Positions 17,265-44,299 are shown, counted from the stretch's first letter. The stretch: 44,299 nucleotides of DNA from Deltaproteobacteria bacterium (GCA_038041305.1 JBBTGV010000013.1:5510-49808), one strand, 5' to 3'. Made by a program: numbers and translations. The notes: generated by a model from the letters alone, not told the origin.

Positions 17265-17268
17265 TTTG

Positions 17269-19936: not shown

Positions 19937-19940
19937 TGCC

Positions 19941-19983: not shown

Positions 19984-20021
19984 ATCAGGACATACGGCCA
20001 TCGGTTTTCAGTTGAAGGTAT

Positions 20022-21668: not shown

Positions 21669-21703
21669 GACATACCCTCCTTTTTATCCTTATTGTTGTG
21701 TTT

Positions 21704-22366: not shown

Positions 22367-22409
22367 ATCGCCTCCTTTTCGCGGCCTAAGGCCGCTCTTT
22401 TAACGCCTT

Positions 22410-23795: not shown

Positions 23796-23819
23796 GTCAT
23801 TCTCCTGCAAAGTTATAAA

Positions 23820-23988: not shown

Positions 23989-24822
23989 TCATTTCAAGGA
24001 AAGAAGGTATTTTAAGATCATTGCCTTGTGATTAAGTCTTTCAGGCACCCATGCGTATTTATCCGTATTTTCTGCGTCATACATAATATCAGGCGCGTTG
24101 TCATTGCACCTTGTCCAGAGCGCTCTGCCCTTTGCCGCGTTGTTAAGGAGTTCAATTGCATGGCCCTTGTAAGCGCCCTGCACATGGTCTTTTTGGGCCT
24201 GATACCTGAAATAACCGCACCTTATGTCTTTTATGAACCTTTGCGCCTCCCTCTGGTTCCAGAACGAATCATCAGAGGTCGGAAAATCCTTTAACGGCTC
24301 ATGGGTGTCGTTCTTCGTCGTGTTAAACCTGTTAGAAGGCCCCTCCCAGTCAAATATGAACTTCACGCCTTCAACGTCCTCCATCGCAAGCGCGCCCGTT
24401 GCTATTATGATTCCGATTGAAAAGGACAGTATCCTGACCCCCTCCACGTCCGGCAGCCCGGAAAAATGCCTTATCACGCCCAAAAGCTCCTTTTGGTGGC
24501 GCGGGCCCCAAAAATCCTCTTTTCCGGGGCTTTTCCCCCTCCCTGAAGGGTCGTAGTGAAGGACTATGTATCCGGCGGAGGCAATGTCTTTCGCGCTCAG
24601 GAAATCAAACCTGTCGTAGTCGGTGCCCGGGCTGTTTGCGCCCGGCACGATTATGACGCCCGGAAACCCGCCTTTTTCAACCGGCCTGTGCATGTGCGCG
24701 TAAAGCCCCGCGCCTCCGTCAATCCATGCCTCTTTGTACGCGGTCTTTTTCAACCTTATGTCCAAGAGGCCTGAAAGCTGAAGCCCTGCCTTAAGATTAT
24801 TTATCCTGTATATAAGCCCCAT
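23989..24822 (-). CDS. Alpha/beta-fold hydrolase (CocE/S15-like; possible esterase or deacylase)
   Basis: GVIIVPG, YIVLHYDPSGRGKSPG, nucleophile elbow LSFSIG and a candidate catalytic His in DHVQ. Starts 4 bp after the acyltransferase stop. Confidence 0.7.
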   Translation of the reverse strand: MGLIYRINNLKAGLQLSGLLDIRLKKTAYKEAWIDGGAGLYAHMHRPVEKGGFPGVIIVPGANSPGTDYDRFDFLSAKDIASAGYIVLHYDPSGRGKSPGKEDFWGPRHQKELLGVIRHFSGLPDVEGVRILSFSIGIIIATGALAMEDVEGVKFIFDWEGPSNRFNTTKNDTHEPLKDFPTSDDSFWNQREAQRFIKDIRCGYFRYQAQKDHVQGAYKGHAIELLNNAAKGRALWTRCNDNAPDIMYDAENTDKYAWVPERLNHKAMILKYLLSLK

Positions 24823-24826
24823 AAAC

Positions 24827-25744
24827 CTATTTTCTTATAAGGAGTCCCGGAGAAAACCTGTCAAGGAAGTGCAGGTACTGCGGGTATTCCGAGGCATACG
24901 ACTCAAGGCGCCTTACGAATGCCTCGGTCATGCGCCTTGGATCGTCCTCGGTCAAAGGCCTTTCTATTATTATCGTATAAAGGAACCTTGCCTCGCCCGG
25001 CGCTATAAACATGGGGAGTATCTTTGCGCCTGTTTTTTTAGCGAGGATTGAGGGGCCAAGGGGAAATAGCACGTCCTGCCCGAAAAACTTAAACGCCTCG
25101 TGTCTTCCGACATGCTTATCAGTGCCCGTGCCGTCGCCGGTTATCATTAAAACGCCGTTGTCCTTTAACCACCTGAACGCGCCCCTTAGGAACGCCTCCG
25201 CGTTTATCACCTCTGCCGGCATCTTTGACTCGTAGAAAAGCCGGAGCTTGAACGCGACATTCCTTCCTATCCAACTTAGCCCCTCGTCGCTCGGCAACCC
25301 TATCTGCTTCATCCGGTACCCGAGCCTCGCAAGCGCCACAAGCGGAAGGTGCACCGGGCCGAAGTGCCCGTGCACGAGTACCGCGCCGAGCCCTGATTTA
25401 AGCGCGCTGTCAAGGTGTTCAACGCCCTTTATGTTAACGAGCCTTTTTAACTCGTTTGCCCCAAGCCTCGGGAATATGAATATGAAAAGCCTGTCTATGT
25501 AATGGTTCCTTAAATACTCTCTTGATATTTTTCCAACGGTTTCAGCCGGGCAATCCTTTCTTATGCGGCCGAGGTTCTGCGAAAGGACCTTTTTTTTGCC
25601 CCTTGAGAGCGAATAATGCAGGTCTCCCATCAGCCTTAGGATTGAAATGGCTGTGCGTACAGGTGAGGCCAGTATAAGCCATCTCAAGGGATACCACACA
25701 AAAAGCCTTAGGATGTCCCGGCCAATGCCCTCTTTAACGGTCAT
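24827..25744 (-). CDS. LpxL/HtrB/PatA-family lipid acyltransferase (copy 3)
   Basis: IKGVEHLDSALKSGLGAVLVHGHFG, LKDNGVLMITGDG, FFG...GPSILAKKTGAKILP and YPQY motifs. Confidence 0.85.
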   Translation of the reverse strand: MTVKEGIGRDILRLFVWYPLRWLILASPVRTAISILRLMGDLHYSLSRGKKKVLSQNLGRIRKDCPAETVGKISREYLRNHYIDRLFIFIFPRLGANELKRLVNIKGVEHLDSALKSGLGAVLVHGHFGPVHLPLVALARLGYRMKQIGLPSDEGLSWIGRNVAFKLRLFYESKMPAEVINAEAFLRGAFRWLKDNGVLMITGDGTGTDKHVGRHEAFKFFGQDVLFPLGPSILAKKTGAKILPMFIAPGEARFLYTIIIERPLTEDDPRRMTEAFVRRLESYASEYPQYLHFLDRFSPGLLIRK

Positions 25745-25748
25745 TTGA

Positions 25749-27419
25749 TTATTGCGCTGAATAGTACTGGTTTAATTGGATATTAAACGAATTGACCCTG
25801 TCCGTGTCAAGCCCTGCGATGTTTCTCTGCTCATTCGGGTCAAGCGCGAGGTCAAAAAGCTCTGTCTCATCCCCTGTCTTTATAAGCTTATATCCGTCCT
25901 TTATCAACGATATTTTTTCCGAGTGGTCCCATGACCCCGCAATATAGGATATAACCGGCCTTCCCCCGAAATTGACATCCTGACCGTTTACCACCGGGAT
26001 CAGGGATTTGCCGTCAATTGAAAGCGAATCAACGTCTAAATTGAGATAATCAAGCACGGTGGGCAGCGCGTCAATCGTGCGCACATATTCATCAACAGAT
26101 AAACTCTCTGTCTGGCCCGGAAATTTTATAAGAAGCGGGACATGCAGGAGCGAATTATAGAGGTTGTCGCCGTGCGAAAAATAATTCGTGTGATCCGTCA
26201 TGTTCTCGCCGTGGTCTGCCGTGATTATTATCAGGGAATCGTCGTAAAGGCCCTTTGCCTTGAGCGATTCCAAAAGAACGCCGATGCTATAATCGGCGAA
26301 CCTTATCTCCGAGTCGTACGCCGCGACATAAAGCCTTGAGTCCTGATAAATGCCCTCTATGCTTAAAGGCTCCGCAATGCAAGCCTGCACATCAGAGTTA
26401 AGGTCTGTATACGCAATGCCATCGCTAAAGGAAACGACCTTGTTGCCCGAAGACGCATAGACATCGTCGTTCACGAAGTCATAGAGATAAGACCTCCCGG
26501 GGTCATAATCCCAATGAGGGCTTATCAGTCCGACAAACATAAAAAATGTCCTGTCTTTATTCGCGTCTGCGTCAAGCCATTTTACGGCCTTCTGAACGAT
26601 CTGCTGATCTAGGTTTGACCCGTCAACGATCTGAAACCTTTCGTCAAAATCAGCATCAAGGTACTCAACCAAAACATTCGTCTGAAGCGAGACCGTTGCA
26701 TAGCCTTTGTACTTCATGTGAATGGGCAGCGCCGCGCCCTCTTCAATCCTTTTCTTTTCATACACATTGTGTTCGTGATTGAACGCGAACTTGCCGAGAA
26801 GCATTGATGCGTATGAGGGATATGTCCACGCCGCCGGCGCAATGGCGTTTTTAAATACAACTGATTGCCCCGCGAATTCCGCGATATTGGGCGCCGTATC
26901 CCTTGCGTATCCCCATGCAGGGAGATGGTCAGCCCTTAAGGTGTCAACGACTATCATTACGACATTCGGGTTTGCCGTCTTTGAGCCCACCACAACCCTC
27001 TTTACGGAAGACACTGTTGAGGATACGTTGTTTGATGAATCCCTTACAAACGCATAAAGAGTCTTTTCCCCGTAGCCCTCGCTCAATTCATGGCTGATTT
27101 TAATTTCAAGCACGCCCACAGGCTCAATCGCCGCCCATCGGGCATCATCAGGCGAAGGCGCTTGAGGCTCCTCTGACACATAATAGCCCGTAATCGCCGT
27201 GTCATCCTCTGCACTTAAATCCACCGTGACTGTCCTTGAATCAATTGAGTCCTCGCCGTTTATGGTTAATGATAAATCCTGAGGCGGGGCCGCATCAATC
27301 TGGACATTTCCAAAATCATGCCCAACAGAGCAGCTGTTTAAGAAAATAAGGCCGATAATATGGAGAAAACAGATCGTTAATATTGAATTTATCCTTATGC
27401 CCAATGCCTTATAACACAT
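25749..27419 (-). CDS. Predicted lipoprotein, sulfatase-like alkaline-phosphatase-superfamily enzyme with an N-terminal beta-rich domain
   Basis: Lipobox-like FLNSC; PNVVMIVVDTLRADH, WTYPSYAS, YDSEI, IIITADHGE, HVPLLIK and ELFDLALDPNE motifs. Confidence 0.85.
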   Translation of the reverse strand: MCYKALGIRINSILTICFLHIIGLIFLNSCSVGHDFGNVQIDAAPPQDLSLTINGEDSIDSRTVTVDLSAEDDTAITGYYVSEEPQAPSPDDARWAAIEPVGVLEIKISHELSEGYGEKTLYAFVRDSSNNVSSTVSSVKRVVVGSKTANPNVVMIVVDTLRADHLPAWGYARDTAPNIAEFAGQSVVFKNAIAPAAWTYPSYASMLLGKFAFNHEHNVYEKKRIEEGAALPIHMKYKGYATVSLQTNVLVEYLDADFDERFQIVDGSNLDQQIVQKAVKWLDADANKDRTFFMFVGLISPHWDYDPGRSYLYDFVNDDVYASSGNKVVSFSDGIAYTDLNSDVQACIAEPLSIEGIYQDSRLYVAAYDSEIRFADYSIGVLLESLKAKGLYDDSLIIITADHGENMTDHTNYFSHGDNLYNSLLHVPLLIKFPGQTESLSVDEYVRTIDALPTVLDYLNLDVDSLSIDGKSLIPVVNGQDVNFGGRPVISYIAGSWDHSEKISLIKDGYKLIKTGDETELFDLALDPNEQRNIAGLDTDRVNSFNIQLNQYYSAQ

Positions 27420-27498
27420 TTGCCTTAAGTATGCTTATATCGGTTTTTTTATAGCGTATGCTACATTAAAAAACAAAAAAAATTTATGCCTTTAATGC

Positions 27499-28770
27499 CT
27501 ACTTGCCTTTTAACGCGAGCATGCCGTTAAAGAATCTTTCAATATATCTTGTCCTGGGGCTTGTATAATATCTCGGAAAAAGAAGGTTCTCTCCTTTTTT
27601 AACGAATCCCTCGGACAGCGCTATGTCGTAGAGCTTTGTATGGGGCTCTATCCTCATTGAATTGAATTCAAAGTGCACCCTGTTCTTCATTTTTCGCTTT
27701 GCCTTTAACGCGAATTTCAGCATCGCCAAAAAATCCTTGAAAGTCTGGCCCGGAGGATTTTTGAAAAAATTATAGCACAACTCAAATCCCTGTATTCCGT
27801 TCAAAACCTCAAACGTGCGAATTATGTCGCTGTTCGTGATGTTTTTCTCCAATTTTTTCAAGGCCTTGTCCCCGAATCCGTCAGGCGACAAAATTATCTT
27901 TGTGCAGCCCGCCTTTATCGCAAGATCTATAAAGTCTTTTCTAATCCCCGCCTCAGAGAACCAAGCAGACCATCTGACCTTAAGGCCCCTTCTTAAAATC
28001 TCCCTCATTATCTCATCGGCATGTTTCATCGGAATATTAAACACAGAATCAACGAATGTGAACTCCGCAATGCCGTGAGATGAAAGGGCCTCTATCTCGT
28101 CCGCTATGAGCCTCGGGCTCCTTAAGCGGTAGCTCCTTCCGTTTAAGAACCCGTATATGCAGTATATGCACTTAAGGGCGCACCCCCTTTTCGTCTCAAT
28201 GCCAATCGCATCCGGGGTTGCCTTGTACGCTGATGCCGGGAATATCGTCCTGTCCGGCAGGGTGGTCCTGTTCAGGTCCGCCTGCGGCGGCGCGCCTGAG
28301 AACATGACATGGCCGTCCTGCCGGTAGAAAACCCCTTTTACCCTGAGAGGCGCGTCAAGGTTGTCAAGTAGCCCCGCGATGATGTTTTCGCCCTCAAGAA
28401 AAACCCCGGCGTCAATAGTCTCCTCATCATCCATTATCTCTCTCGCGTACATTGAAAACCCGGAGCCGCCTACGATTATCCTGCCTGCAGAGGCCTGCCT
28501 AATCGCCTTCAGCGCGTCCTTGAAGAATTTATAATAAAACACGACCTTTCTCTTGTTCGTTGAGTCAATGTTTCTTAGGGATACGAGGACGGCCTGCGGG
28601 GAAAACTCGCTTAAAACGCGCCTCAGCTCGTCATAAGGGTTTTTGTGGAGGTTTAAGTCAATGCCCTTAAGCTCGTGTTTTTTTATGCAGGCCGCGATTG
28701 ACGCAAGGCCGATCGGGTAAACAAGCGGCTCGGCCCCGCCGAGATAGGACTGTACGAGCAGAACCCTCAT
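27499..28770 (-). CDS. Cobalamin-binding radical SAM enzyme 4 (TsrM/lipid-cluster-like motifs)
   Basis: YPIGLA, SLRNID and VGGSGFS in the B12 domain; ETKRGCALKCIYC; FVDSVFN. Confidence 0.9.
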   Translation of the reverse strand: MRVLLVQSYLGGAEPLVYPIGLASIAACIKKHELKGIDLNLHKNPYDELRRVLSEFSPQAVLVSLRNIDSTNKRKVVFYYKFFKDALKAIRQASAGRIIVGGSGFSMYAREIMDDEETIDAGVFLEGENIIAGLLDNLDAPLRVKGVFYRQDGHVMFSGAPPQADLNRTTLPDRTIFPASAYKATPDAIGIETKRGCALKCIYCIYGFLNGRSYRLRSPRLIADEIEALSSHGIAEFTFVDSVFNIPMKHADEIMREILRRGLKVRWSAWFSEAGIRKDFIDLAIKAGCTKIILSPDGFGDKALKKLEKNITNSDIIRTFEVLNGIQGFELCYNFFKNPPGQTFKDFLAMLKFALKAKRKMKNRVHFEFNSMRIEPHTKLYDIALSEGFVKKGENLLFPRYYTSPRTRYIERFFNGMLALKGK

Positions 28771-30275
28771 GCAGCGGCCTTAGCAGGATGGAGCAGCCTT
28801 TTTATAATATTATTCAGGGCCTTAAGGCCGATATAAAGGTACTTGAACACAGGCCTCATGGGGGCGCTGTTAAGGATATTGACCAGAGGCGGGTTTACGA
28901 GGATTTTCAGCAATGCGCTTGGAAAACGCCCGTTCTTTGAAAGCGTCATGAGGAGATTCAGGTAGTTCGGCGCCCTCATGGTGTAGCTCTTCTCGTAGAT
29001 CTGTTTTTTCTCGTCGGTTATAAGCCCGTCCCTCTTTGCATCCTCGTAGAGCTTTGTCCCCGGATAAAGCACAAGCGAGAACGGCTGCAGGTGAAACGGC
29101 TTCGGTATCTCGGCAATGAGCTTAAGGGAGTCTATCTTGTCCGCATCCGTCTCATAGGGCACGTCAAGGATAAAGTCATAGCTCGGCGGAAACATTTTAT
29201 CCTTATGCCTGTTTATGATTGAAAAGGCCTTTTTAAGCCTCTCGTTGTCCATTTGCTTTCTGTTGAATATCTCCTGAATCTTCTTGCTCCCGGTCTCCAC
29301 CCCCATCTGGAGATAGATAAGCCCGGCGTCCACGAGCCTCTCCATCTTCTCCTCGGACATGGTCATGGGGCTTGCAAGGCATGAGAACGGAAGGTTTATC
29401 TCCCTCTTGTACACGCCGCAGAACTCGTCAAGGCTCTGCCTGCTCCTCGCGAAAAACGCATCGTCGGAAATCCACACAAACCCCACATAGGGCATGGTCT
29501 CCTTCACGCGCTTAAGCTCCTGAATGACATGGCCGGTGCTCCTCCATCTGAGATAATTCTGGTTGTTGTACATGCCCTTCAGCGTGTCGTTTATGCAGTA
29601 CGTGCATTTGTGCGGGCATCCCCTGCCCGTCATGGTCTGGTACCCCGTCTTCTTAAGGTAATGGGAGACAGTGCCCTCCTCAAGTATCTTTTTCTGAAGC
29701 CCGTATGTAAGGGGCTGTATCCGCCCGGCGTAAAGCACATGGTGGCCGTTAAGGCTCCAGTCCGGGGCAGGATAGACGTCAAGGTCTTTGACAAGCGGCA
29801 TGGGCGCGTTTTTTATAATCCTACCGTTGTGCCTGAAATACATGTTGCCCACGTCAAGGTACGGCTCTTTATTCTCCATCCTCCGGACAAGTTCAAGCAT
29901 CGCGTCTTCCCCGTCGCCTACGCAAACCATGTCCGCATGCTCAAGACACTCAACCGGCCTTATCGTGGGATGTATGCCTCCCCACAGGACAGGGGTCTTA
30001 AGGCGGGCCTTAATCTTTTTCGTTATCTGGAGCGCCCCCTCATAGAAATTCGTCATGAGGGTTATGCCGACGATGTCCGAGTCCCTGCAAAGCGGTATTA
30101 TGCCTTCAAGCACATTGTCGTCGTAGCGCTTAACGCCGAAGACAAGATTGTCCCCGAAAGGGTCTGGTATGAATATAATGCTTGTTGAATGGCCGTGGGC
30201 CTTGAGATGCGCGGATATCGTGCGTATCCCGAATGCGGTTATGTCCGGATAAGGCGAAATAAAGGTTATCTTCAT
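28767..30275 (-). CDS. Cobalamin-binding radical SAM enzyme 3
   Basis: WGGIHPT, GDGE, RGCPHKCTYC, ISDDAF and MGVETGS motifs. Confidence 0.92.
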   Translation of the reverse strand: MKITFISPYPDITAFGIRTISAHLKAHGHSTSIIFIPDPFGDNLVFGVKRYDDNVLEGIIPLCRDSDIVGITLMTNFYEGALQITKKIKARLKTPVLWGGIHPTIRPVECLEHADMVCVGDGEDAMLELVRRMENKEPYLDVGNMYFRHNGRIIKNAPMPLVKDLDVYPAPDWSLNGHHVLYAGRIQPLTYGLQKKILEEGTVSHYLKKTGYQTMTGRGCPHKCTYCINDTLKGMYNNQNYLRWRSTGHVIQELKRVKETMPYVGFVWISDDAFFARSRQSLDEFCGVYKREINLPFSCLASPMTMSEEKMERLVDAGLIYLQMGVETGSKKIQEIFNRKQMDNERLKKAFSIINRHKDKMFPPSYDFILDVPYETDADKIDSLKLIAEIPKPFHLQPFSLVLYPGTKLYEDAKRDGLITDEKKQIYEKSYTMRAPNYLNLLMTLSKNGRFPSALLKILVNPPLVNILNSAPMRPVFKYLYIGLKALNNIIKRLLHPAKAAA

Positions 30276-31867
30276 GCTGTCTTGGACGTGGATTTAATGA
30301 AAAACCTGTAGAGCCTCGGGAAATCCCCGGTTAAGAGCGACCTTATCCCCTTGTATAACATTATAAGGAATTCCCCGGCATTATTGAGGCCCGTGTAAAG
30401 GTTGGACAAAGACCTCCGGTCAAACAATCCAAGGAAAACCCCCCCGGACAAAAACCTCACAACACACCTCGGAAAATATGAAAACCCAGCGAGATACATA
30501 AGGAAATTAAAATAGCTTCCTTTCGGCATATGCAGATGCTTTGAATATATCTCCCTCTGCTCGTCGGCCTCGTTCTTTATTATGCCGTCCCTTTTCGCCA
30601 TGTGATAAAGCTCTGTGCCCGGGAAGCACACAAGGGACGCCCTCTTTAGCCAGAACGGCCTCGGAAGCCTTAAAACGAGATTTATGGTCTCAACGACATC
30701 ATTTGAGCTTTCCCACGGGTTGTCAAGTATCACATGGTAGCACGGCGGATATATCCTTTTCCTGTATCTGTGGAATATTTCAGCGGCCCTTAAGATCGTC
30801 TCTGAAGGCACCTTTCTTTTATAAAGGTCTTTCGCGGCAACGCTTGTTGACTGTATGCCCATCTCAACGAACGCGAGGCCCGCGTCAACAAGGGCCTCCA
30901 CCTTTTCCTCGGTAACGGTGCCGGGGCTTGCCTGAATATGGAACGGGAGGTTGATAGCGGTCTTATACGCCTTTGCAAACTCCGATATGTCCTCGGCGGA
31001 CCTTGCAAGGAAGGTGTCGTCAAAAAGAAATATGCTTTCCACGAAAGGCATCTCCTTTTTCACGGACATCAGCTCGCCCATTACGTGGCCGGTGGATCTG
31101 CGCCTTAGGTACTTCTGCCCGCCGTACATGTCGGCAAGGGTCTTCTCGGCGCAGAACGTGCAGTGATGAGGGCACCCCCTTGTCGTCATTGTCTTGTATG
31201 AAAGGGTTCTTTTGTACGCGTCGCTGAAGCTGCCCTCAACGTGCGGCTCAAGCGGGAACGACCTTTTCAGAAGCTCCTTTGTCATGGGCTCTATTGACCC
31301 CTTGACGTTGTCGTAGATAAAATGCCCGTCCGGGCCGAAGTCGTAATAAGGAAGCTCGTCAAGGTTATGTATTAGGGGCCTTAGCGGGTTCTTCGCCACA
31401 TGGCCGTCCTTCTTGCCCCAGATGTTTCTTATGTCGTGATACGGCTCGTTTCTCTCAAGCCTCCCTGCAAGCTCCAGAAGCGCCTCCTCCCCTTCGCCGA
31501 GGCAGACCATGTCCGTAAACATCAGGGTCTCAAGAGGCGCGACCGTGGGATGAATGCCGCCTGCTATCAACGGGACGTCCTTCATGGCCGCCTTTATCGC
31601 GCCGCAGAGCTGAACCGCCCTGTCAAGGTAATTGCTCATGAACGATATGCCGACGAGGGAGGACCCCCTGCACAGCTCAACCACCTCATCAAGTATCTTT
31701 TTTTCGTACTGATACTTAAAGCCTTCGGTGTGCTTGAACTTCTCAACGCCGCCGGGCAGGAATATCAGGCGCACATCCTTTTTGTGCCTCTTTAAATATG
31801 CCGACAACGCCCTTACCCCGAATGCCGCGACATCGGGCGGGGTGGGGGCCACAAGCGTTATCCTCAT
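30272..31867 (-). CDS. Cobalamin-binding radical SAM enzyme 2
   Basis: AGGIHPT, GEGE, RGCPHHCTFC, FDDTF and MGIQS motifs. Confidence 0.92.
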   Translation of the reverse strand: MRITLVAPTPPDVAAFGVRALSAYLKRHKKDVRLIFLPGGVEKFKHTEGFKYQYEKKILDEVVELCRGSSLVGISFMSNYLDRAVQLCGAIKAAMKDVPLIAGGIHPTVAPLETLMFTDMVCLGEGEEALLELAGRLERNEPYHDIRNIWGKKDGHVAKNPLRPLIHNLDELPYYDFGPDGHFIYDNVKGSIEPMTKELLKRSFPLEPHVEGSFSDAYKRTLSYKTMTTRGCPHHCTFCAEKTLADMYGGQKYLRRRSTGHVMGELMSVKKEMPFVESIFLFDDTFLARSAEDISEFAKAYKTAINLPFHIQASPGTVTEEKVEALVDAGLAFVEMGIQSTSVAAKDLYKRKVPSETILRAAEIFHRYRKRIYPPCYHVILDNPWESSNDVVETINLVLRLPRPFWLKRASLVCFPGTELYHMAKRDGIIKNEADEQREIYSKHLHMPKGSYFNFLMYLAGFSYFPRCVVRFLSGGVFLGLFDRRSLSNLYTGLNNAGEFLIMLYKGIRSLLTGDFPRLYRFFIKSTSKTA

Positions 31868-34330: not shown

Positions 34331-35252
34331 GCCCTGCCTTGCCGTAATCAAGAAAAAGCGGATTTACCTTGTCATGACCAGCCCTTATGCGTTCAAACAT
34401 CAGGTTGGGGGCATAGAAATGCGGGTATTTAAGGAAGTACCCTTTAAACACCCCAAGGAATCTCTCAACGCCGTCATCCGGGCTGCTGTATTCAATGGGC
34501 CTGCCTATTGTCAGCGTATGCACGCCGTTGTCGCCCCTTACGATAAAAAGAGGCATGATCGGGGCGCGGCACGACTGCGCTATCCTGAATATGCCGTTTG
34601 AAAGAAGCATGGGCCTGCCCAGAAAATCGTATTGCCTCATGTTGGCCCCAAGCCTGCCGTCCACAGCGCACAGAAGCACCCCGTTGTTCTTAAGGGCCTC
34701 GTGCGCCCTCTTGCCGAGCCTGTCGGCGATTATGATCCGTGCGGGCATCTTGTCCCCGATATGCCTTCTTCTCCTTCTTACCATGCCTGCGAGCAACCCT
34801 ATCTTGTCGGGGCCCTGCTCGGACGGCCCGGCCTCCGCGAGCTGGCAGACCGAATACCCCTTGTATCCGAGCGCCGGGATTACGAGGAGGTGGTTAGAGA
34901 AGTGCATTAGCGCGAGCACCGCCCCCCTTCCCCTTGAAAGCGCGTTGTCAAGGTAATCCAGCCCCTCAAAATCAACGATTGAAAGCATCCTCTTTTTCCG
35001 GTCAAAAAAAAGCCTCTCCTCCTCGTCCTTGATCATTGAGGCGTAAGCCTTTTTAGCCATGCCTTTATACTCGTCATCGGAAAGCCCGCCTTGAAGCAAT
35101 CTCAGTTCATCCCGCATCAGAGCGCCCCTGCCGGACCTCACCGCAAGACCGCCAAGCATGCCGCACACGCCCAACACGAGCATTTTAGGCAGGACATATA
35201 TGAACCATCTAAGGACACACCATACGAACAAAAGCGCCAGATTCTTTATCAT
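34314..35252 (-). CDS. LpxL/HtrB/PatA-family lipid acyltransferase (copy 1)
   Basis: FEGLDYLDNALSRGRGAVLALMHFSN, LKNNGVLLCAVDG, FLG and YPHFY motifs. Confidence 0.85.
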   Translation of the reverse strand: MIKNLALLFVWCVLRWFIYVLPKMLVLGVCGMLGGLAVRSGRGALMRDELRLLQGGLSDDEYKGMAKKAYASMIKDEEERLFFDRKKRMLSIVDFEGLDYLDNALSRGRGAVLALMHFSNHLLVIPALGYKGYSVCQLAEAGPSEQGPDKIGLLAGMVRRRRRHIGDKMPARIIIADRLGKRAHEALKNNGVLLCAVDGRLGANMRQYDFLGRPMLLSNGIFRIAQSCRAPIMPLFIVRGDNGVHTLTIGRPIEYSSPDDGVERFLGVFKGYFLKYPHFYAPNLMFERIRAGHDKVNPLFLDYGKAGHERAS

Positions 35253-36895: not shown

Positions 36896-36911
36896 TTCCT
36901 TAATATAACGA

Positions 36912-38357
36912 TTACCATTCTTTTTTCCATATAAGCGACGCAAAGGCGGACAACTCGTTTTTCTTGAAAATGCCCGCCGTATAAAGCACGCCGAAATACA
37001 TTATCGCCCCAAGCACGGCGGCAAGGGCCAATGAGGCTGTATTCGGCCCCTTTATCAATAATACCACAGCTCCGCTTAAAATTCCCGCAAGACATGTCTT
37101 TGTCAGTACTTTGTCAAAAGACGCCTTAAAACCGGTATTTGACAGGAAATAGAGCGAAAAAAGGAATAAACCCGTGTAAGAGACAAGCGCGATGTACGAT
37201 GCCGCCATGTACCCGTATTTAGGTATAAAGAAAAGCCCAGCGAGTATGTTTACGGCAAGCATGAGCCCCGCGTAAAACACGATGTATCTCTGCCTGTTCA
37301 TGGCAACGAGCACCACGTTTGACACCATATCCATTGAAAGCGGTATGATCGCCCATGACACGACCCTAAGGGCCGGGACCGCGCCGAGGTATTTGTCGCC
37401 AAAGGCGATCCTGATAATCTCCTCCGCAAAAAGGGAAAAATACATCGCGATCAGGAAGTTCAGCACGAAAAAGTACCTGAATATCTTTTCATAGAAGTCA
37501 AACGCCTTTTCAGGCTCGTTGTGCTCCAGCCTCGCGATAACCGGGAACATCGCCGCGATCAGGGCCGCCGGCAGGATCTGCACCTGAAGAACCGTATTAT
37601 GCGGGGCCTGAAAAAACGCGACGGACTCAAGCGAACCGAGCCACTTGAGCAGGAGCACGTTTATCCTTGAAAGATTCTGGCAGAGGAATACACCTATCCC
37701 GACTATTGCGGAATCCACAAAAAACTTTCTCAGCACCTCCCTCTTGATGTAAAGCTCAGGCCTTACGAAGCCCTTGAAAAGTATGATGGAGGTCAATGCG
37801 AACTGTATAAGGTTTGCCGCGGCTGAGGCCGCTATAATGCCAGTCAGCCCAAGGTCAAGCCCTACTGCGGCCAATATAAAGCCCGTAAGGGACAGGTAGT
37901 ACACAAGGGCTATTGCCGGCTCGTAAAACATCTTTTCATAGGCCTGGAATACCGCCCTGCCGAGCATGCTGAACGCGAGAAAGGTCTCGGATGCGATTGC
38001 GACTATAAACGGGATCGTCGCCTCGGCCGAGAGGTCCATGAATTTTATAGACAAGAAAAGCGCGGCAACCGCGGTGGCGGTCAGGTACGACCTTAGCCGC
38101 AGCGCCACCCCGAGGTAATGCCCCGCGTTCTCCCTGTCCCTTGCGATGTCCCTTATAAGGACCTGCTGTATCCCGAAGTAGGAAAGGGCCATAAGCGAGG
38201 TCACGAACGCGATGATGAAGGTATACTCGCCGTACGCCAGGACGGAAAGGTAGCGGGCGACTATAATGAGGATGAAAAAAGAGGACGCCACCTGCACGCC
38301 TTTTGCCGCGAGTATGAAAATTGAATTTTTTAATATGCTTGAGTTTGTTGAAAGCAC
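36912..38357 (-). CDS. wzx: Wzx-type flippase (MOP/PST family)
   Basis: ILKNS...IVARYLSVLAYGEY, about 12-14 hydrophobic segments, MFPVIARL, FGDKY and FIPKYG motifs. Confidence 0.88.
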   Translation of the reverse strand: MLSTNSSILKNSIFILAAKGVQVASSFFILIIVARYLSVLAYGEYTFIIAFVTSLMALSYFGIQQVLIRDIARDRENAGHYLGVALRLRSYLTATAVAALFLSIKFMDLSAEATIPFIVAIASETFLAFSMLGRAVFQAYEKMFYEPAIALVYYLSLTGFILAAVGLDLGLTGIIAASAAANLIQFALTSIILFKGFVRPELYIKREVLRKFFVDSAIVGIGVFLCQNLSRINVLLLKWLGSLESVAFFQAPHNTVLQVQILPAALIAAMFPVIARLEHNEPEKAFDFYEKIFRYFFVLNFLIAMYFSLFAEEIIRIAFGDKYLGAVPALRVVSWAIIPLSMDMVSNVVLVAMNRQRYIVFYAGLMLAVNILAGLFFIPKYGYMAASYIALVSYTGLFLFSLYFLSNTGFKASFDKVLTKTCLAGILSGAVVLLIKGPNTASLALAAVLGAIMYFGVLYTAGIFKKNELSAFASLIWKKEW

Positions 38358-38422
38358 CGGTTTGAATTGTCCTTGGAATATGCGATTTAAGGCATGGCTT
38401 GGCGGCTTAAAAGAAACTATTT

Positions 38423-40147
38423 TTACCGGCAGTCTTCAGGGCATACCCCTTTTTCCCTTTCAACGGGGCCGCATACGCCGTCCCCGCACCTTCCCCTCTG
38501 GCCGTTCCTGCCCTCGCCCCTCTGCTCGGTCCGTCCCGGCCTCTCTGCGCCTTGTGACGGTTCATCATAGAGGTCTTCCGTATCTATGGGAATCGCCCCT
38601 GCCGTCTCATCCTCTATTATCAAAGGCCGCTCCGTAAGATTAAGCCTTATTGACCTGCCTTCAACGCCTATTATGTCCGCGTTAAAAGACCCGCCCGCCG
38701 CCACCACGGCCGTAACCCTGACCCTTTTGTACGGGACGTCTTTAATCAGATATTGGGCGCCCCCCTTGTTGTCGTTCCACGCTATCCAGACGGGCCGGCC
38801 CGCCATTAGGACCTTAAACACATACAATCCGCCCGAGTTCTCAATGGAGGTCATGCCCTCAAAATCCGCCCCGTCAAGCCTTGAGGCCATGAGCCTGTAG
38901 GTGTGGTACGCGGGCCTTTTCACGAGCCTGCCGGATACATCCCTTGAAACGATCGCCCCCTTGCTGAACGGGTCGGGCGCGCTCGCCGAGGCCGCAAGGG
39001 CCGTCCAGAAGACCTTCTTGGCCCCGACGGACATCGCGTATATGTAGCGCTTGAAAAGGTCCTGCGCGTGCTCGGTCTCTCCAGAATATATGCCCGTCGT
39101 CTCGGTCACGATAAAGGGGGATGTCTCCTCAAAATACTTCCTTTCAATCTTCCAGATGTCGTCCCTTAATATCACTATCCTCCTGTACTGCACCTCCGGG
39201 GGCATGATGCGCTTAAAAAACCAGTGCACGTCAAGCATGTCGTATTTTTTAAGCCCCGAGCTTATTGAGGCGAGCTTCGCAAAAAACCTTTCCGCGAAAT
39301 CGGTCGTGGCGCCGAGGTCGTCAAAATAAAGCGCGGCGGCAATGACCGTTGCCTCCGGGTCGGCGGATTTTACGGCGTCGTAGGCAACGCTTAAGGTCGT
39401 GGCATAGTCCTCGGCAGTGCCGATCCAGTAATCCCTCATGAACGGCTCTTCCTCTATGAGCCAATATTTAACGGCGTACCTTAATCCCGGCATGTCGTCC
39501 CGGCCGTCAAAGTCGTACCGTTCAACGACGGCGGATACGAACCTCTTGTATTGCTCAATGTCCCGCGGCAGCCTCGGCACCTTTCTCTCGCCAGCCGCGG
39601 CCCCGGCCTCAGGCTCAGTGGCCCTTATGTTCGCCAGAAGCTCTATGCCGTTGGCCTGAAGATACCTCACGAGGCAGTCGTATTCGTCCCATTTAAACCC
39701 GGTGTATGCGCCGTCGGAATTTTTTCCCTGCACCCGCTTCCATATAAACGCCTGAAGCCCGCCGCCCTTGACCCATCTGACTCGGAGGTCCTGCATAAGC
39801 TCGGGCAGCCTTTTGTTCCACGAAAAAAATTCGCCCTTGTAGGTAATCGCGTCAAGGAATCCGAACGGAGACTCCGCGTATTGGGGCGGATGCGGAACGG
39901 GCTTGAAGCCCAAGGGCACCTCAGGGCATTGCGTCTGCTCCGGCTGGTTGGACCGCGCCTCGGTCCTCGGCCCGAGGGCAAGATACGTCTCTGCGCCGGC
40001 TGGGGCAACGGACAGGCTTAAGCCAAAGGCAAAAAGGACTGAAACCCAGGCAAAAAACCCCGCCCCTGACAATGCAACCGCCCTAAGAACGCCTGTTTTA
40101 TGAAAATGTCTCAAGATATTATCGCCCCGTCGGCCCCCCAAAACCAT
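38423..40147 (-). CDS. Secreted clan GH-A-like glycoside hydrolase (GH39/GH5-like) with a Cys-rich C-terminal tail
   Basis: Signal peptide (APAGA|ET); SPFG, VVERYD.DG.DD, YWLIEEEP (acid/base position), DVHW, IVTET (nucleophile), KVFW and KRPAYHTY motifs. Confidence 0.75.
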   Translation of the reverse strand: MVLGGRRGDNILRHFHKTGVLRAVALSGAGFFAWVSVLFAFGLSLSVAPAGAETYLALGPRTEARSNQPEQTQCPEVPLGFKPVPHPPQYAESPFGFLDAITYKGEFFSWNKRLPELMQDLRVRWVKGGGLQAFIWKRVQGKNSDGAYTGFKWDEYDCLVRYLQANGIELLANIRATEPEAGAAAGERKVPRLPRDIEQYKRFVSAVVERYDFDGRDDMPGLRYAVKYWLIEEEPFMRDYWIGTAEDYATTLSVAYDAVKSADPEATVIAAALYFDDLGATTDFAERFFAKLASISSGLKKYDMLDVHWFFKRIMPPEVQYRRIVILRDDIWKIERKYFEETSPFIVTETTGIYSGETEHAQDLFKRYIYAMSVGAKKVFWTALAASASAPDPFSKGAIVSRDVSGRLVKRPAYHTYRLMASRLDGADFEGMTSIENSGGLYVFKVLMAGRPVWIAWNDNKGGAQYLIKDVPYKRVRVTAVVAAGGSFNADIIGVEGRSIRLNLTERPLIIEDETAGAIPIDTEDLYDEPSQGAERPGRTEQRGEGRNGQRGRCGDGVCGPVEREKGVCPEDCR

Positions 40148-40170
40148 GCCTTATGATATCAAAGATTCGC

Positions 40171-41640
40171 TCAGCCCACAACATAGACCGGCCAGGCCGC
40201 GCCTTCACGCGCCTTGGCCTGTTTAAGGACCGCGTTTGCCGCGACAATGTTTAAGGCGAGATAAAACCACGGATACCTGCCTATCATTGACGTAAATTCA
40301 TACTCAATAAGCCCGTGCACGCAGACCTCTCCGATTACGATGGCGGATGTCGCGATAAGGATGATGTATTGGGGCGAGGCCCTGTCAACCGCCTTAAAGC
40401 ACCTTACAAGCATTGCCAGGAGCATGTAAAACGCGATCAAAAAGAGCATGATGCCGAAGATGCCTATGTCAAAAAACATCGCAAGGAAGAAACTGTGGAC
40501 CTCCGGCGACTGCGTGTAGTAGACGAATCCGCCGGGGCCAAGCCCGAAGAGAAGCTTATGAGGCCTTTCAACCATCTTCCTAAGCCCTGTCTTCCACCAG
40601 TCAATCCTTACGTCCATGCCCGTGCTCTCAAACTTTGACGAGGTGCTCGTTGACCTCTTGGCCTCTGAAAAAAGAAGCTCCCCCTCGTAGCCGAACCCGA
40701 CGAGGAGCCTGTCCACGAACTGGGGCTTTGCTATGAGCATGAGCGCCGGTATTGCTATGACAAAGGCGGCGGTGAGCGTTATAAACCTTATCCTCCCCTT
40801 CTCGTGAAGAAGTATGAAGGAGATTATCCCGGCGGCGAATCCGATAATCGTGCCCCTTGATGTCGTCATGAACATCGCAACCGCCATAAAAACACCCGCG
40901 AACGCGTAATACGCCTTTTTGAGCCGGCCCGTTGCCTTAAGCGTCATCGCGATGGCGATAAAGACGACGGCGGAGAGATACCCGCCGGTCTGGTTGACGC
41001 CGCCCAGGCCCGCAAGCCGGTTGTTGTCCTTAAGAAGCCCGTACGAATAGCCGAGGTTCTTGCTGATAAAAACCTTTTCAATGCCGTCGTAATACATCGT
41101 CAGATAAAGGAATGCGCCGGTAACAAGCCCGGATAGTATTATCACGTCAAAAAGCGCGTCAATTGACTCGCTTTTCGCGCCGTACTGTATGAGGAGGTAG
41201 AAGATGATTATGTTTACCGAGAAGATTATCACATTGTGGAACCCGAAGGCCGCGTTCGGCGACCACAACAGCCCCTGCATCTCAAAAAAGAACAAAAGCG
41301 CCGCGACAACGCTCAAGGGGTTTTTCATGAAATGCCACTGGTTTCTCGGATTAAAGGCAAAGGCGGTGCCTATAAGGAGAAAACCCAGCACGAACACATA
41401 GAGCGGATACTTTGAGACATAGATGGAATCCATAAAAAAGACGTTCACGGTCTCCGTTGAAAAAGTAAGCAGAAAGAGGTAGAAGCCCAACCTCGGATTT
41501 ATAACGATCGCAAGGATTACCGGTATTACGACGACAAGCGATATGAAGACAATGGATGAAAAGATAAGATACGAAAGCGCGACAAGGAAGGCGCACGCGA
41601 CAAAAAGGACCGTAAGAATATTCTTGTTTGACGCAACCAT
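40171..41640 (-). CDS. O-antigen ligase/Wzy-family polymerase
   Basis: Many transmembrane segments; RLAGLGGVNQTG, TTSRG, RIDWW...LLFGLGPGGF...EVHS and HGLIE motifs. Likely start ATG 41640. Confidence 0.85.
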   Translation of the reverse strand: MVASNKNILTVLFVACAFLVALSYLIFSSIVFISLVVVIPVILAIVINPRLGFYLFLLTFSTETVNVFFMDSIYVSKYPLYVFVLGFLLIGTAFAFNPRNQWHFMKNPLSVVAALLFFFEMQGLLWSPNAAFGFHNVIIFSVNIIIFYLLIQYGAKSESIDALFDVIILSGLVTGAFLYLTMYYDGIEKVFISKNLGYSYGLLKDNNRLAGLGGVNQTGGYLSAVVFIAIAMTLKATGRLKKAYYAFAGVFMAVAMFMTTSRGTIIGFAAGIISFILLHEKGRIRFITLTAAFVIAIPALMLIAKPQFVDRLLVGFGYEGELLFSEAKRSTSTSSKFESTGMDVRIDWWKTGLRKMVERPHKLLFGLGPGGFVYYTQSPEVHSFFLAMFFDIGIFGIMLFLIAFYMLLAMLVRCFKAVDRASPQYIILIATSAIVIGEVCVHGLIEYEFTSMIGRYPWFYLALNIVAANAVLKQAKAREGAAWPVYVVG

Positions 41641-41696
41641 CCAATCCCCGCCCTTTAAGGCTAAAATTTTCCGCCTTGCCACGTCCGTCTCTCGCG

Positions 41697-42419
41697 TCAG
41701 CCCAGCAGACTCGTCGGGCAAGTAAACGCCATTGCGTCCGCCCTGCCGGCGCCGGCGAGTTTTTCAATGCACAGACAGGCATCTGCCATCGGCGCAATGC
41801 CGTTAGTGAACCTGTGCGTATCGCTTGCGATCACATGGCCGAGGCCGTTCTCTATAAGCTTTTTCGCGGCGTTTTTTACGGTCCTGCCGTATGCCCCCAA
41901 CAGGCTTCCCGCGTTAACCTGCAGGAGCATCCCGTTATCCGCGAAGGGTTTCGCGGCCCTGAAGTCCTGCATTACGTCCGGGCACCTCTCCGGGTGCGCC
42001 CATATGGGGACGATGTTGTTCGCCAGAAACTCAAAAACAACGCTTTGGGCATACGGGGGAATGCCGGAGAGCGGCATCTCAACGAGTATGTGTCTGCCGA
42101 GCCCGCCTATGGTTATCCTCTTTTCCCTCTTCACGAACTGCGGCAACCCCACCTCAAGAAGCACCTCCGCGCCGAGGACCAATTCAAGGCCCGCGGCCTT
42201 GAGCGCGAGCGCGGCCTTAAGCTCGTTAAACTTGTTCTCAACAATGTCAAGATATGCGCTTCTGATGAGATCAAGCGAGTAATGCGGGGTTGCCACCACT
42301 GCCTTTGCGCCGTCCTCCAATGCCTTTACGGCTATGGCTATTGATTCCTCCCTGTCCCTCGCGCCGTCGTCAATGCCGTGGAGTATGTGCGTATGTATGT
42401 CAACGAAACTCAAAGCCAT
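41697..42419 (-). CDS. PHP-family protein-tyrosine phosphatase (CpsB/CapC/YwqE type)
   Basis: DIHTHILHGIDDGA, ATPH, GAEV, AHPER and ASDTH motifs; adjacent to wzc. Confidence 0.93.
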   Translation of the reverse strand: MALSFVDIHTHILHGIDDGARDREESIAIAVKALEDGAKAVVATPHYSLDLIRSAYLDIVENKFNELKAALALKAAGLELVLGAEVLLEVGLPQFVKREKRITIGGLGRHILVEMPLSGIPPYAQSVVFEFLANNIVPIWAHPERCPDVMQDFRAAKPFADNGMLLQVNAGSLLGAYGRTVKNAAKKLIENGLGHVIASDTHRFTNGIAPMADACLCIEKLAGAGRADAMAFTCPTSLLG

Positions 42420-42433
42420 TGGATGAGGTTGCC

Positions 42434-44299
42434 TTACTGGTAGTACTGGGAGTAGTAGTAATAGTATGAGGCCCTTGTGCCGCTCACCTTATTTAAGACC
42501 ACGCCGACGAGGTTAAGATTGGCCTTTCTTATCTGCTCAAGTATGTCACCGAAGATGGTCCTGCTCGCCCTCTCGCTCTCTATGACGACGATTATGCCCT
42601 TTGCGTATCCGCCGAGTATTATGGCGTCGCTTGAAGGCAGAAGCGGCGGGGCGTCAACTATCACGATGTCGTATTCCTTCTCCATCTCGGAGATAAGGTG
42701 CTCCATCCTCTTTGATTCAACAAGCCTTGCGGGGTCCGGCGGGATGGGGCCCGTGGTAATGATGTCAAGGCCGATCAACCCCGTCGCCTGCTTAATTTCA
42801 TGCACGTCCGCGTCTCCGGCGAGTATGCTCGTTATGCCCCTTGCGTTCGGCTTGCCAAACTGAGCGTGTATCGCGGGCCTTCTTAAGTCCCCGTCAATGA
42901 TGAGGACCTTTTTGCCCTCGTTTGCGAGCGCCATGGCGAGGTTGGACGAAAAAAAGGTCTTGCCCTCGCCCTGTATGGAGCTTGTCACGACAATGCTGGT
43001 GACCGGTTTGTCAAGGGTTGCGAATTTCACGGAATTCCGGATGGACCTGAAGGTCTCGTTCAGATGGGACCTCGGGTCCGTCGTATCTATGAGCCGCGTC
43101 TCGTTTTTCTTGAGCTTAAGGATGCTTCCGAGGAATGTCGGGGTTTTAAATGCCTTTATGTCGTCCGACGTCTTTATCGTGTCGTCAAGGTATTCCATGA
43201 GTAGGGCCGCGCCAAGCCCGAATGAAATGCCCATGAAAATACCGACGATCGTGTTCATCACGACATCCGGATTCCTGTGCCTTGCGTCGTTCGGGCCGGG
43301 CGCAATGGCGGGTTCAACGAGGTATATGCTTGATATCGCCATTGACTCGGCAATGCCTATCCTGTACTGGTATGTAAGGAGCGTCTCGTATATGTCCTCC
43401 GTGACGGTTACCCCGAGCTGGACCTGCGCGCTATGGGCGAGTTTTTTGGGCAGCCTCATCATGTCCGCCTCATACGCCGCTATTATCTTAGGGAATTCCC
43501 TGTTCTGCGCCTCGTATCCGGCAAGGTCGGCGTAATACCCTGCCAACTTTCCGGCAAGGTCCTGATACACGGGGTCTACGCTTATGGTCTCGGTGCCGAA
43601 AACCTTTTGAGCCTCTTTCTCAAGAAGCGATCGCATCTCTCTCAGCTTGCCCTGTATCTCAACGACAGAAGGATGCTCGTCGGTATATTTGCTCCTTGCC
43701 GTTGCAAGGTCAAGGTACAAATCCCTGATGGAGAGCTTAAGCGAAATTATGATGTCGTTTTCCTTGATCTGCTCCGACGCCTTCTGAAATCTGGGTATCT
43801 TCTTCAGGTCTTCCTCAATCCTCTTTATGGAACTCCTCGTCTTAAATATCAAAAGGTCGTTGTCAACCATGTTCTTCTTTAAATCATAGACCTTCTGAAT
43901 GATGTTTGAGGTCTCGGTGTCAAGGTTTACGGTCTTTTCAGACTCCTTGAACTCCTTTTGCCCCTCAAGGGCATTACGGTACTCCTGCCTCGCCTTCTCA
44001 ATGTTCTCATCAATAAACTTCCTTGCGCCGAAGTAGTCGTCCCTGACCCTTTTAAGCTCCTCTTCAATGAACGCGTTCGCCATCGCGTTGGCGATGTCGC
44101 TGGCCTGCTTCGGGTCGGGCGAGGTTGCCTCAATCTCAAGTATGTCGCTCTCCTCGTACTGCGTTACCTCAACATACGGCCTCGGAAAGACGATTGACAG
44201 GATTGAGGCGTCGGTTAAATCCTCGGGGCTCATCACCTGAAATGTTGATTCAACGTCCACCCCTATTGCCTTTAATACGGGCTTAAGCCCTGGGATGGC
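42434..44299 (-). CDS. wzc: Wzc-type polysaccharide co-polymerase/BY tyrosine autokinase (5' end beyond the window)
   Basis: Coiled-coil periplasmic region (YTDEHPSV), transmembrane helix, ETFRSIR, GEGKT, IDGDLRRP, VDAPP and C-terminal Tyr cluster YYYYYSQYYQ. The frame stays open from 44260 to the window edge. Confidence 0.94.
   Translation of the reverse strand, partial: AIPGLKPVLKAIGVDVESTFQVMSPEDLTDASILSIVFPRPYVEVTQYEESDILEIEATSPDPKQASDIANAMANAFIEEELKRVRDDYFGARKFIDENIEKARQEYRNALEGQKEFKESEKTVNLDTETSNIIQKVYDLKKNMVDNDLLIFKTRSSIKRIEEDLKKIPRFQKASEQIKENDIIISLKLSIRDLYLDLATARSKYTDEHPSVVEIQGKLREMRSLLEKEAQKVFGTETISVDPVYQDLAGKLAGYYADLAGYEAQNREFPKIIAAYEADMMRLPKKLAHSAQVQLGVTVTEDIYETLLTYQYRIGIAESMAISSIYLVEPAIAPGPNDARHRNPDVVMNTIVGIFMGISFGLGAALLMEYLDDTIKTSDDIKAFKTPTFLGSILKLKKNETRLIDTTDPRSHLNETFRSIRNSVKFATLDKPVTSIVVTSSIQGEGKTFFSSNLAMALANEGKKVLIIDGDLRRPAIHAQFGKPNARGITSILAGDADVHEIKQATGLIGLDIITTGPIPPDPARLVESKRMEHLISEMEKEYDIVIVDAPPLLPSSDAIILGGYAKGIIVVIESERASRTIFGDILEQIRKANLNLVGVVLNKVSGTRASYYYYYSQYYQ

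Follow-up and report, generated by a model that had tools for sequence, protein, structure and literature searches.

We analyzed a 44-kb stretch of DNA (the window; G000:C13:5510-49808) from the 49.8-kb contig C13 of a Deltaproteobacteria bacterium (genome G000), in which 15 minus-strand open reading frames (ORFs) fill positions 44299 down to 23989. The encoded proteins, as labeled from ORF calls with Pfam and NCBIfam, include capsule-type export and polymerization proteins, three acyltransferases (AT1 to AT3), and four radical S-adenosylmethionine (SAM) enzymes with B12-binding domains (rS1 to rS4). These genes probably form part of a conserved, heavily decorated surface-glycan locus of the Wza/Wzc/Wzx/Wzy type, the glycosyltransferase (GT) module of which, with the 5' part of the initiating phosphoglycosyltransferase (PGT) gene, would be located on a second contig of the same genome, C75. 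The assembly logic is that of standard Wzx/Wzy systems, and the novelty lies in a conserved decoration module of acyltransferases and multiple radical SAM enzymes within an export locus.

An original prediction made from the sequence of this window had pointed to the lack of a recognizable GT in about 20 kb. Searches with the PF00534, PF00535, and PF02397 profiles resulted in no match on contig C13, and no GT9 was found there by tblastn, confirming that statement for this contig. The last base of the window, however, is also the last base of C13 and falls inside wzc; the Wzc fragment aligns to residues 111–723 of the 724-aa Wzc of the relative G013, with about 110 N-terminal residues absent. 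Because C13 ends inside wzc in a metagenome-assembled genome (MAG) that is 69% complete (1.4 Mb in 100 contigs), the absence of GTs from the window is uninformative about the locus. The apparent lack of GTs is an artefact of the assembly break within the first gene, and the window holds the 3' (downstream) two-thirds of a larger conserved surface-glycan locus. Across the genome, the same three profiles matched 9 (PF00534), 17 (PF00535), and 2 (PF02397) times, in every case on contigs other than C13.

Contig C75 is 12,780 nt long and carries all of its genes on one strand, in the order Wzt_C fragment, GT2, GT9, DUF362/Fer4, a further B12-type radical SAM enzyme (rS5), GT2, Mo-oxidoreductase, PF01663, CysD, CysN, and the 5' part of a PGT fusion. 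Its GT9 is 42% identical to the GT9 of the G013 locus. The PGT-fusion fragment (L038:11985-12779) consists of the NTP_transferase part, which has 47% identity to residues 1–264 of the G013 fusion and runs off the end of the contig. Orthologues of the acyl-CoA ligase, dehydrogenase, and Wza that relatives encode next to wzc were not found elsewhere in the incomplete G000 assembly, where the best matches had 29–33% identity (33% for Wza); their absence fits a location in the gap between C75 and C13. It is likely that C75 precedes C13 across approximately 4–5 kb of unassembled DNA. The other end of C75 (L038:1-327) encodes a fragment of a Wzt C-terminal domain, which suggests an ABC-transporter-dependent glycan locus just upstream of the GT module. 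The GT9/rS5/GT2 module ends in a conserved block (L038:6150-11723) that encodes the Mo-oxidoreductase (349 bits, Fdh-alpha-like), another PF01663 enzyme, and the sulfate-activation proteins CysD and CysN, and that is also present in G003, G015, and G013.

Related loci and their distribution

Syntenic loci were identified in the relatives G013, G034, and G043. Upstream of wzc, an acyl-CoA ligase, a Zn-dehydrogenase, and Wza are encoded in five of five relatives and a PGT in four of them (G013, G003, G015, and G083, not G043). In G013, the genes upstream encode an NTP_transferase/LbH/Bac_transf fusion (587 aa), an AMP-binding ligase, the Zn-dehydrogenase, and Wza, followed by Wzc. The whole system is found on one strand of a single contig in G003 and G015. 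That of G003 is a gap-free block of 20 genes and 28 kb, reaching from the PGT fusion through Wza, ligase, dehydrogenase, Wzc, Wzx, an rS4-like protein, a PslG-like protein, Wzy, and an rS1-like protein to PF01663, acyltransferase, GT9, DUF362, rS5, GT2, Mo-oxidoreductase, PF01663, CysD, and CysN. The locus nearest to the window in gene order is that of G083 (PF01663, small PGT, ligase, dehydrogenase, Wza, Wzc, PHP phosphatase, PslG-like protein, Wzy, Wzx, PF01663, and AT2, with GT9 further along). GT9 and GT2 also occur in G003, G015, G043, and G421, and in G163 and G421, which belong to other families of the phylum, the cassette is joined to Wza, Wzc, and Wzx.

Genome contigs were then scanned with rS3, which resulted in 16 loci, DNA already reached as relatives being counted once. 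These loci come from MAGs labeled Deltaproteobacteria/Thermodesulfobacteriota, Nitrospirota, Planctomycetota, Smithella, and Syntrophobacteraceae, and their conserved core is acyltransferase, (rS1), rS2, (extra B12-type radical SAM enzyme), rS3, rS4, acyltransferase, (hydrolase), GT9, DUF362/ferredoxin, rS5, and GT2. A GT9 is encoded in 9 of the 16 loci. Ten loci extend more than 4 kb beyond the cassette, and nine of these have it, the exception being L030 with none within 5 kb. Among the other loci that lack it, five (L028, L029, L034, L036, and L037) stop because their contig ends within the final cassette gene detected or shortly beyond it, and L031 has only 2.6 kb downstream. The GT9-DUF362-rS5-GT2 series follows directly after the cassette in L024, L026, L033, G421, and G043:C46. 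The G043 locus breaks inside rS4, and another contig continues with AT3, hydrolase, GT9, DUF362, rS5, and GT2.

Two options had been offered in the original prediction: a glycan with heavy acylation and radical modification, made by GTs encoded elsewhere, and a lipid-linked repeat unit that acyltransferases and radical chemistry would build without GTs and that capsule machinery would export. The former is supported by the GT matches on other contigs, by C75, and by the loci of relatives. The latter, like a chance juxtaposition of genes, would account for the absence of any GT family match from the 44-kb window and the 49.8-kb contig, but the contig stops inside wzc, nearly every related locus has GT9, GT2, and PGT genes together with the cassette, such genes are found on C75 too, and gene order is kept in six or more families of the phylum. 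We consider both barely credible and essentially excluded. Inspection of the genes upstream of wzc and of the remaining genome, a check that the prediction had proposed, recovered PGTs in relatives and GTs on C75, the upstream region of the window itself being cut by the contig end. The presence of GTs in homologous loci largely reduces the finding, as foreseen there, to a decorated glycan of the Wzx/Wzy type, and the proposed use of synteny as a test against chance juxtaposition turned out in favor of a genuine locus, with conservation across families.

Orthologues of rS3 (E ≤ 1e-100) were present in 11 of 61 genomes (G000 and 60 relatives), and rS5 matches in 22 of the 61, including all 11 with rS3; as these genomes are related and not independent, this co-occurrence describes a pattern without amounting to a test. 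When the phylum was sampled evenly, 7 of 401 genomes, belonging to six families, had rS3 at E ≤ 1e-150. The distribution of the cassette is thus sparse and patchy.

The related loci also encode a sulfotransferase (in L024 only), carbamoyltransferase, SGNH/AlgX-like proteins, class I methyltransferases, radical SAM-SPASM proteins, and amine-oxidase-like proteins. In a 768-aa protein at L024:2127-4433, a PF03279 acyltransferase is fused to a flavin amine-oxidase/desaturase-like domain, and free-standing homologues of this oxidase are encoded beside acyltransferase/radical SAM pairs in L032, L033, and L034. The PGT fusion of G013 (L016:10517-12280) joins an N-terminal sugar-1-phosphate nucleotidyltransferase, a left-handed beta-helix, and the PGT, suggesting channelling from nucleoside-diphosphate-sugar synthesis to the lipid carrier; G083 carries the small PGT domain with no fusion. 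The Zn-dehydrogenase between the ligase and Wza in G013 (L016:13799-14959) passed the cut-off of the IolM (scyllo-inosose 3-dehydrogenase) equivalog (519 vs 450 bits), a possible sign that the pathway involves cyclitol or keto-sugar chemistry.

Acyltransferases and radical SAM enzymes of the cassette

In an alignment of acyltransferase homologues, a His, a Gln, and an Asp are invariant in 28 of 28 members; AT1 carries His117 and Asp198 of this set. The conserved His is found at positions 117, 129, and 127 in the three window enzymes, with the invariant Asp about 80 residues downstream. The HX4D/E motif, the defining mark of the LpxL/LpxM family, is absent at this catalytic His from all three, and their best NCBIfam scores are 27–66 bits vs cut-offs of 209–540, so that neither the LpxL nor the LpxM equivalog is reached. 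Among solved structures, AT2 is closest to PatA (E 1.4e-3), and its His129 aligns to the His of the PatA motif PHSGNWD; the top NCBIfam match of AT3 is phosphatidylinositol mannoside acyltransferase (50.4 bits, below cut-off). Orthologues in related loci have 48–56% identity for AT2 and 52–65% for AT3.

These family assignments bear on a further explanation, in which the genes would form a module directed at lipopolysaccharide (LPS), with the acyltransferases as extra late lipid A acyltransferases, GT9 as a core heptosyltransferase, the Wzy_C protein as the ligase WaaL, and the radical SAM enzymes acting on lipid A or core. The PF03279 matches would fit such a module, as would the scores of GT9 against heptosyltransferase II/III models (114–123 bits) and the Pfam name of the Wzy_C family, "O-antigen ligase". 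None of these proteins, however, reaches an LpxL, LpxM, or heptosyltransferase equivalog cut-off, the conserved His lacks HX4D/E, and the nearest solved structure is PatA. Wzc, the PHP phosphatase, the PslG-like hydrolase, and the PGT and Wza of relatives are parts of exopolysaccharide (EPS) or capsule systems, and separate GT9 clusters (C19 and C34) and a PF03279-like gene (C85) are available in the genome for ordinary LPS. An LPS-directed role is thus highly improbable.

All four radical SAM enzymes of the window match PF02310 and PF04055 above cut-off and contain CxxxCxxC (CPFRCGYC in rS1), and they show the class B (cobalamin-binding) radical SAM architecture of an N-terminal B12-binding domain and a radical SAM core, from which cobalamin binding is predicted. 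The best NCBIfam matches of rS1 are BchE (179 bits, cut-off 481), Sden_1168 (178), and HpnJ (162), all below cut-off, and its best match in the PDB is AprD4. A paralogue of rS3 (41% identical), rS2 has orthologues of 73–74% identity in G013 and G034. The most conserved marker of the cassette is rS3, with orthologues of 53–75% identity in 14 of the 16 loci, and rS4 is always paired with it. For rS4, scores of 270.9 bits against BzaD (cut-off 450) and 232.4 bits against TIGR04072 (cut-off 360) were obtained, both below cut-off, and its best PDB match is TsrM. No specific family could be assigned to rS1–rS4, as no NCBIfam cut-off was reached and the PDB relatives (AprD4, TsrM, CysS, OxsB, and TokK) match at E 1e-23 or weaker. 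One rS3 orthologue (G297:C260:1231-2715) contains a single in-frame TGA, which could be a selenocysteine codon, a sign of a pseudogene, or a sequencing error.

The fifth enzyme, rS5 on C75, aligns over its full length to the HpnJ model with 416 bits vs a cut-off of 577.6, higher than the 57–162 bits of rS1–rS4, and its gene adjoins that of a GT2. For HpnJ, contraction of the glucosamine ring on a hopanoid has been proposed (PMC9204698; PMC13459092; PMC9092360), and a similarity network groups it with the sugar methylase MoeK5 (PMC9204698). Squalene-hopene cyclase (PF13243) had no match in G000 (69% complete), G003 and G013 (both 100%), or G015 (96%), and among the genomes checked was matched only in G043. 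A hopanoid context for rS5 was therefore rejected, and its substrate would not be a hopanoid.

Alternatively, the product could be an amphiphilic lipo-glycan or biosurfactant carrying long acyl chains on its repeat unit, with the radical SAM enzymes acting on these chains by methyl branching, cyclization, or cross-linking, similar to the enzymes of hopanoid and tetraether lipids. The machinery would be the same as for the surface glycan proposed above, and only the substrate of the radical SAM enzymes would differ. Consistent with chain chemistry, long-chain-fatty-acid-CoA ligase models give the highest scores for the ligase of the relatives (377.7 bits), rS2–rS4 match the "lipid biosynthesis B12/radical SAM" model TIGR04072 at 82–232 bits, amine-oxidase/desaturase-like proteins are encoded in L032, L033, and L034 with an acyltransferase fusion in L024, and acyltransferase and radical SAM genes alternate and overlap; many lipid-modifying radical SAM enzymes are known (PMC13459092). 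On the other hand, all TIGR04072 scores are under the cut-off of 360, the locus has no acyl carrier protein or fatty-acid synthase gene, and the accessory genes are of sugar-tailoring types. The two gene sets moreover vary independently, given that G015 has two acyltransferases without orthologues of rS1–rS4 and L031 (a 7.7-kb contig) has rS3–rS4 without an acyltransferase. We regard a lipo-glycan as unlikely. For rS1–rS4 themselves, the HpnJ- and MoeK5-type precedents and the sugar-tailoring neighbors would support sugars as substrates, and the similarity to TIGR04072 and the desaturase-like neighbors would support acyl chains.

Proposed pathway and comparison with known systems

For the surface-glycan locus, a pathway can be proposed in which each step is inferred and gene presence is what was observed. 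The PGT, fused to a sugar-1-phosphate nucleotidyltransferase in several relatives, would start the repeat unit on undecaprenyl phosphate, and GT9 with one or two GT2 enzymes would extend it. Up to three acyltransferases of the PatA/LpxL type may then esterify the unit on the cytoplasmic face, with acyl-CoA from the FadD-like ligase of the locus as the probable donor, and rS1–rS4 together with the HpnJ-like enzyme of the GT module would remodel it by C-methylation or carbon-skeleton rearrangement of sugar residues or their acyl substituents. Wzx would flip the finished unit, Wzy would polymerize it, and export would proceed through Wzc, regulated by the PHP phosphatase, and Wza. Outside the cytoplasm, the PslG-like hydrolase and the probable lipoprotein of the sulfatase fold, which has Thr at the nucleophile position, may act on the polymer. 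A hydrophobic scan found no signal peptide or hydrophobic N-terminus in rS1–rS4, AT2, or AT3, and no hydrophobic segment or hydrophobic N-terminus in the PF01663 protein; as radical SAM enzymes also need cytoplasmic reductants, modification would be expected to precede flipping.

Several observations weigh against this reading. As the window proteins all score below the NCBIfam equivalog cut-offs, their substrates can only be inferred. PF03279 and GT9 are best known from the assembly of lipid A and the LPS core, and the Wzy_C family covers WaaL ligases too. The best solved relative of rS1–rS3 is AprD4, a diol-dehydratase with a B12-like domain that is not known to use cobalamin, and the label "B12-dependent" hence derives from the Pfam domain alone. 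The assembly is incomplete, no k-mer overlap (21- to 127-mers) links the end of C13 to that of C75 or either of them to a further contig, and a metagenome scan with Wzc for a near-identical bridging contig found none, the best wzc relative being 40% identical. In L032, the acyltransferase/radical SAM cassette is present without Wzx or Wzy within ±10 kb, and the FAD-dependent amine-oxidase/desaturase-like proteins of some loci favor chemistry on acyl chains over chemistry on sugars.

The outlines of Wzx/Wzy EPS and group-1-type capsule pathways and, for its PslG hydrolase, of Pseudomonas Psl served as the basis for comparison. The locus resembles these in Wzx, Wzy_C, a Tyr-tailed Wzc, a phosphatase, and a periplasmic hydrolase like PslG, in the Wza of relatives, and in a probable initiation by PGT. 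It differs from Wzx/Wzy EPS and capsule loci in combining 2–3 GTs with three PatA-like acyltransferases and 4–5 radical SAM enzymes with B12 domains, in having a phosphatase of the CpsB/PHP type instead of Wzb, in the PGT-nucleotidyltransferase fusion of several relatives, and in the addition, in the full locus, of a Mo-oxidoreductase, two PF01663 enzymes, and CysDN. The acyltransferases share with PatA and LpxL/LpxM the PF03279 family and a conserved catalytic His at about position 120–130, whereas the similarity is weak and the context is Wzx/Wzy instead of phosphatidylinositol mannosides or lipid A. Decoration in the style of Nod factors or synechan reportedly involves acyl, carbamoyl, methyl, and sulfate groups, and is paralleled here by CysD and CysN beside the locus and by the sulfotransferase, carbamoyltransferase, and methyltransferases of related loci; in contrast, no sulfotransferase was found in the window, and those systems are not known to include radical SAM enzymes.

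Among radical SAM enzymes, GenK, GenD1, and MoeK5 have the same architecture of B12-binding and radical SAM domains with CxxxCxxC, but tailor antibiotics and not exported polymers; they are described as cobalamin-dependent sugar C-methyltransferases that act on glycosides (PMC9204698). In the hopanoid pathway of HpnJ, sugar addition comes before ring contraction, and PtmC and calditol synthase are further points of comparison (PMC9204698; PMC13459092; PMC9092360). Such precedents allow a bolder and rather doubtful version of the pathway, in which up to five cobalamin-type radical SAM enzymes would rebuild the lipid-linked unit before flipping: the HpnJ-like enzyme would contract a hexosamine ring to a carbocyclic residue of the cyclitol type, the others would add C-methyl groups or C-branches, and the PatA-like enzymes would esterify the product. 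If true, carbocyclic or C-branched residues in a bacterial surface polymer would for the first time have a genetic route assigned to them; according to PMC9092360, it is not known how the carbocyclic LPS sugar caryose arises.

A literature search, with supplementary files outside its scope, found no description of a cassette of acyltransferases and multiple radical SAM enzymes and no case of radical SAM chemistry on polysaccharide repeat units; within that scope, the earlier statement that no characterized pathway has such a tailoring set still stands. Wired into standard export machinery, the cassette points to surface glycans of anaerobes with C-methylated, rearranged, or heavily acylated residues, and it places HpnJ-like enzymes in a context other than hopanoid producers that can be tested. 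It also teaches that a "missing GT" should not be read as biology if a MAG window stops at a contig break.

Gene content and boundaries of the window locus

The 15 genes of the window locus (Table 1) are all on the minus strand at the places given in the original prediction. Intergenic distances range from −38 to +79 nt, in agreement with the predicted gaps of under 80 bp or overlaps, and all four ATGA overlaps (35249, 31864, 30272, and 28767) were read in the sequence.

Table 1. Genes of the surface-glycan locus in the window, from the contig end to the last gene
Feature	Position	Strand	Basis
wzc, 5' open	42434..44299	-	AAA_31 and TIGR01007
CpsB-type PHP tyrosine phosphatase	41697..42419	-	PF19567 CpsB_CapC, E 2.1e-42, full length
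Wzy_C-family polymerase (or ligase)	40171..41721	-	PF04932, 52.2 bits; ~12 hydrophobic segments
orf4, secreted PslG/GH39-like glycoside hydrolase	38423..40147	-	AlphaFold2 model and Foldseek
Wzx-type flippase (Polysacc_synt)	36912..38357	-	PF01943, 73 bits; 13 hydrophobic segments
PF01663 (Phosphodiest) alkaline-phosphatase-superfamily enzyme	35249..36943	-	134.4 bits
AT1, PF03279 (Lip_A_acyltrans), PatA/LpxL superfamily	34314..35252	-	62.1 bits
AT2, PF03279 acyltransferase	33332..34351	-	76.3 bits
rS1, B12-binding-domain radical SAM enzyme	31864..33366	-	PF04055 and PF02310
rS2, B12-binding-domain radical SAM enzyme	30272..31867	-	PF04055 and PF02310
rS3, B12-binding-domain radical SAM enzyme	28767..30275	-	PF04055 and PF02310
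rS4, B12-binding-domain radical SAM enzyme	27499..28770	-	PF04055 and PF02310
Sulfatase-fold protein, probable lipoprotein	25749..27419	-	PF00884, 130 bits
AT3, PF03279 acyltransferase	24827..25744	-	58.5 bits
Alpha/beta-hydrolase-like protein, last gene of locus	23989..24822	-	weak matches: Peptidase_S15 E 0.0028, TIGR03100 E 8e-4

The functional labels proposed for the glycoside hydrolase, wzx, wzy-like, alkaline-phosphatase-family, and acyltransferase genes hold, on the evidence of Pfam, the fold of orf4, and an Atlas model. Wzc passed the TIGR01007 cut-off (173.8 vs 108 bits), has the C-terminal tail SYYYYYSQYYQ, and is predicted to be a tyrosine autokinase and chain-length co-polymerase. 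The Wzx and Wzy_C proteins are encoded together in the locus, and the Pfam family PF04932 cannot split Wzy from WaaL.

The product of orf4 matched no Pfam or NCBIfam model. Its AlphaFold2 model (predicted local distance difference test score 71.4) has a (beta/alpha)8 barrel and a beta-sandwich, as in GH39 and PslG, and the top Foldseek matches were the GH39 structure 5jvk (E 2.9e-17) and PslG 5bx9 (E 2.6e-16), with probability 1.00. E234 and E349, which we take to be the acid/base and the nucleophile, are invariant in seven homologues and are located at the ends of model strands 228–231 and 345–351; the hydrophobic scan found a single N-terminal segment. The PF01663 protein probably starts at residue 17, where its Atlas model begins, and this model aligns to PF01663 clusters over residues 18–563. 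Hidden GT folds, for which a search had been suggested, were accordingly rejected for both, orf4 being GH39/PslG-like and the PF01663 protein PF01663-like over its whole length.

The label "sulfatase-like" held for the fold (PF00884) and not for the catalytic motif. Formylglycine-dependent sulfatases have a Cys/Ser-x-Pro-x-Arg motif; no [CS]x[PA]xR is present in this protein, which has WTYPSY at the expected place with Thr at the aligned nucleophile position, and a true sulfatase was rejected. Its N-terminus ends in FLNSC and is lipoprotein-like. The gene lies in the lowest-GC stretch of the window (0.456 vs 0.51–0.58 elsewhere), has an orthologue in just one of the mapped related loci, L026 (49% identity), and is possibly a recent insertion. 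In the last protein of the locus, the alpha/beta-hydrolase-like protein, S133-F-S135-I-G137 is invariant; its AlphaFold2 model (score 49) was too poor for a fold search.

On its downstream side the locus has a genuine end, where 178 nt with a terminator-like hairpin at 23940–23921 separate it from fliK, flgD, and flgE, the first of the flagellar genes. This same-strand flagellar operon (window 9366–23810, minus strand) comprises fliK, flgD, flgE, fliL, fliM, fliN, fliP, fliR, flhB, flhA, flhF, and a gene for a MinD/FlhG-like ATPase; G013 has opposite-strand genes in this place and does not show the adjacency of glycan locus and flagellar operon. Downstream of the flagellar genes, positions 7267–9198 (minus strand) encode a 643-aa protein made up almost entirely of HEAT repeats.

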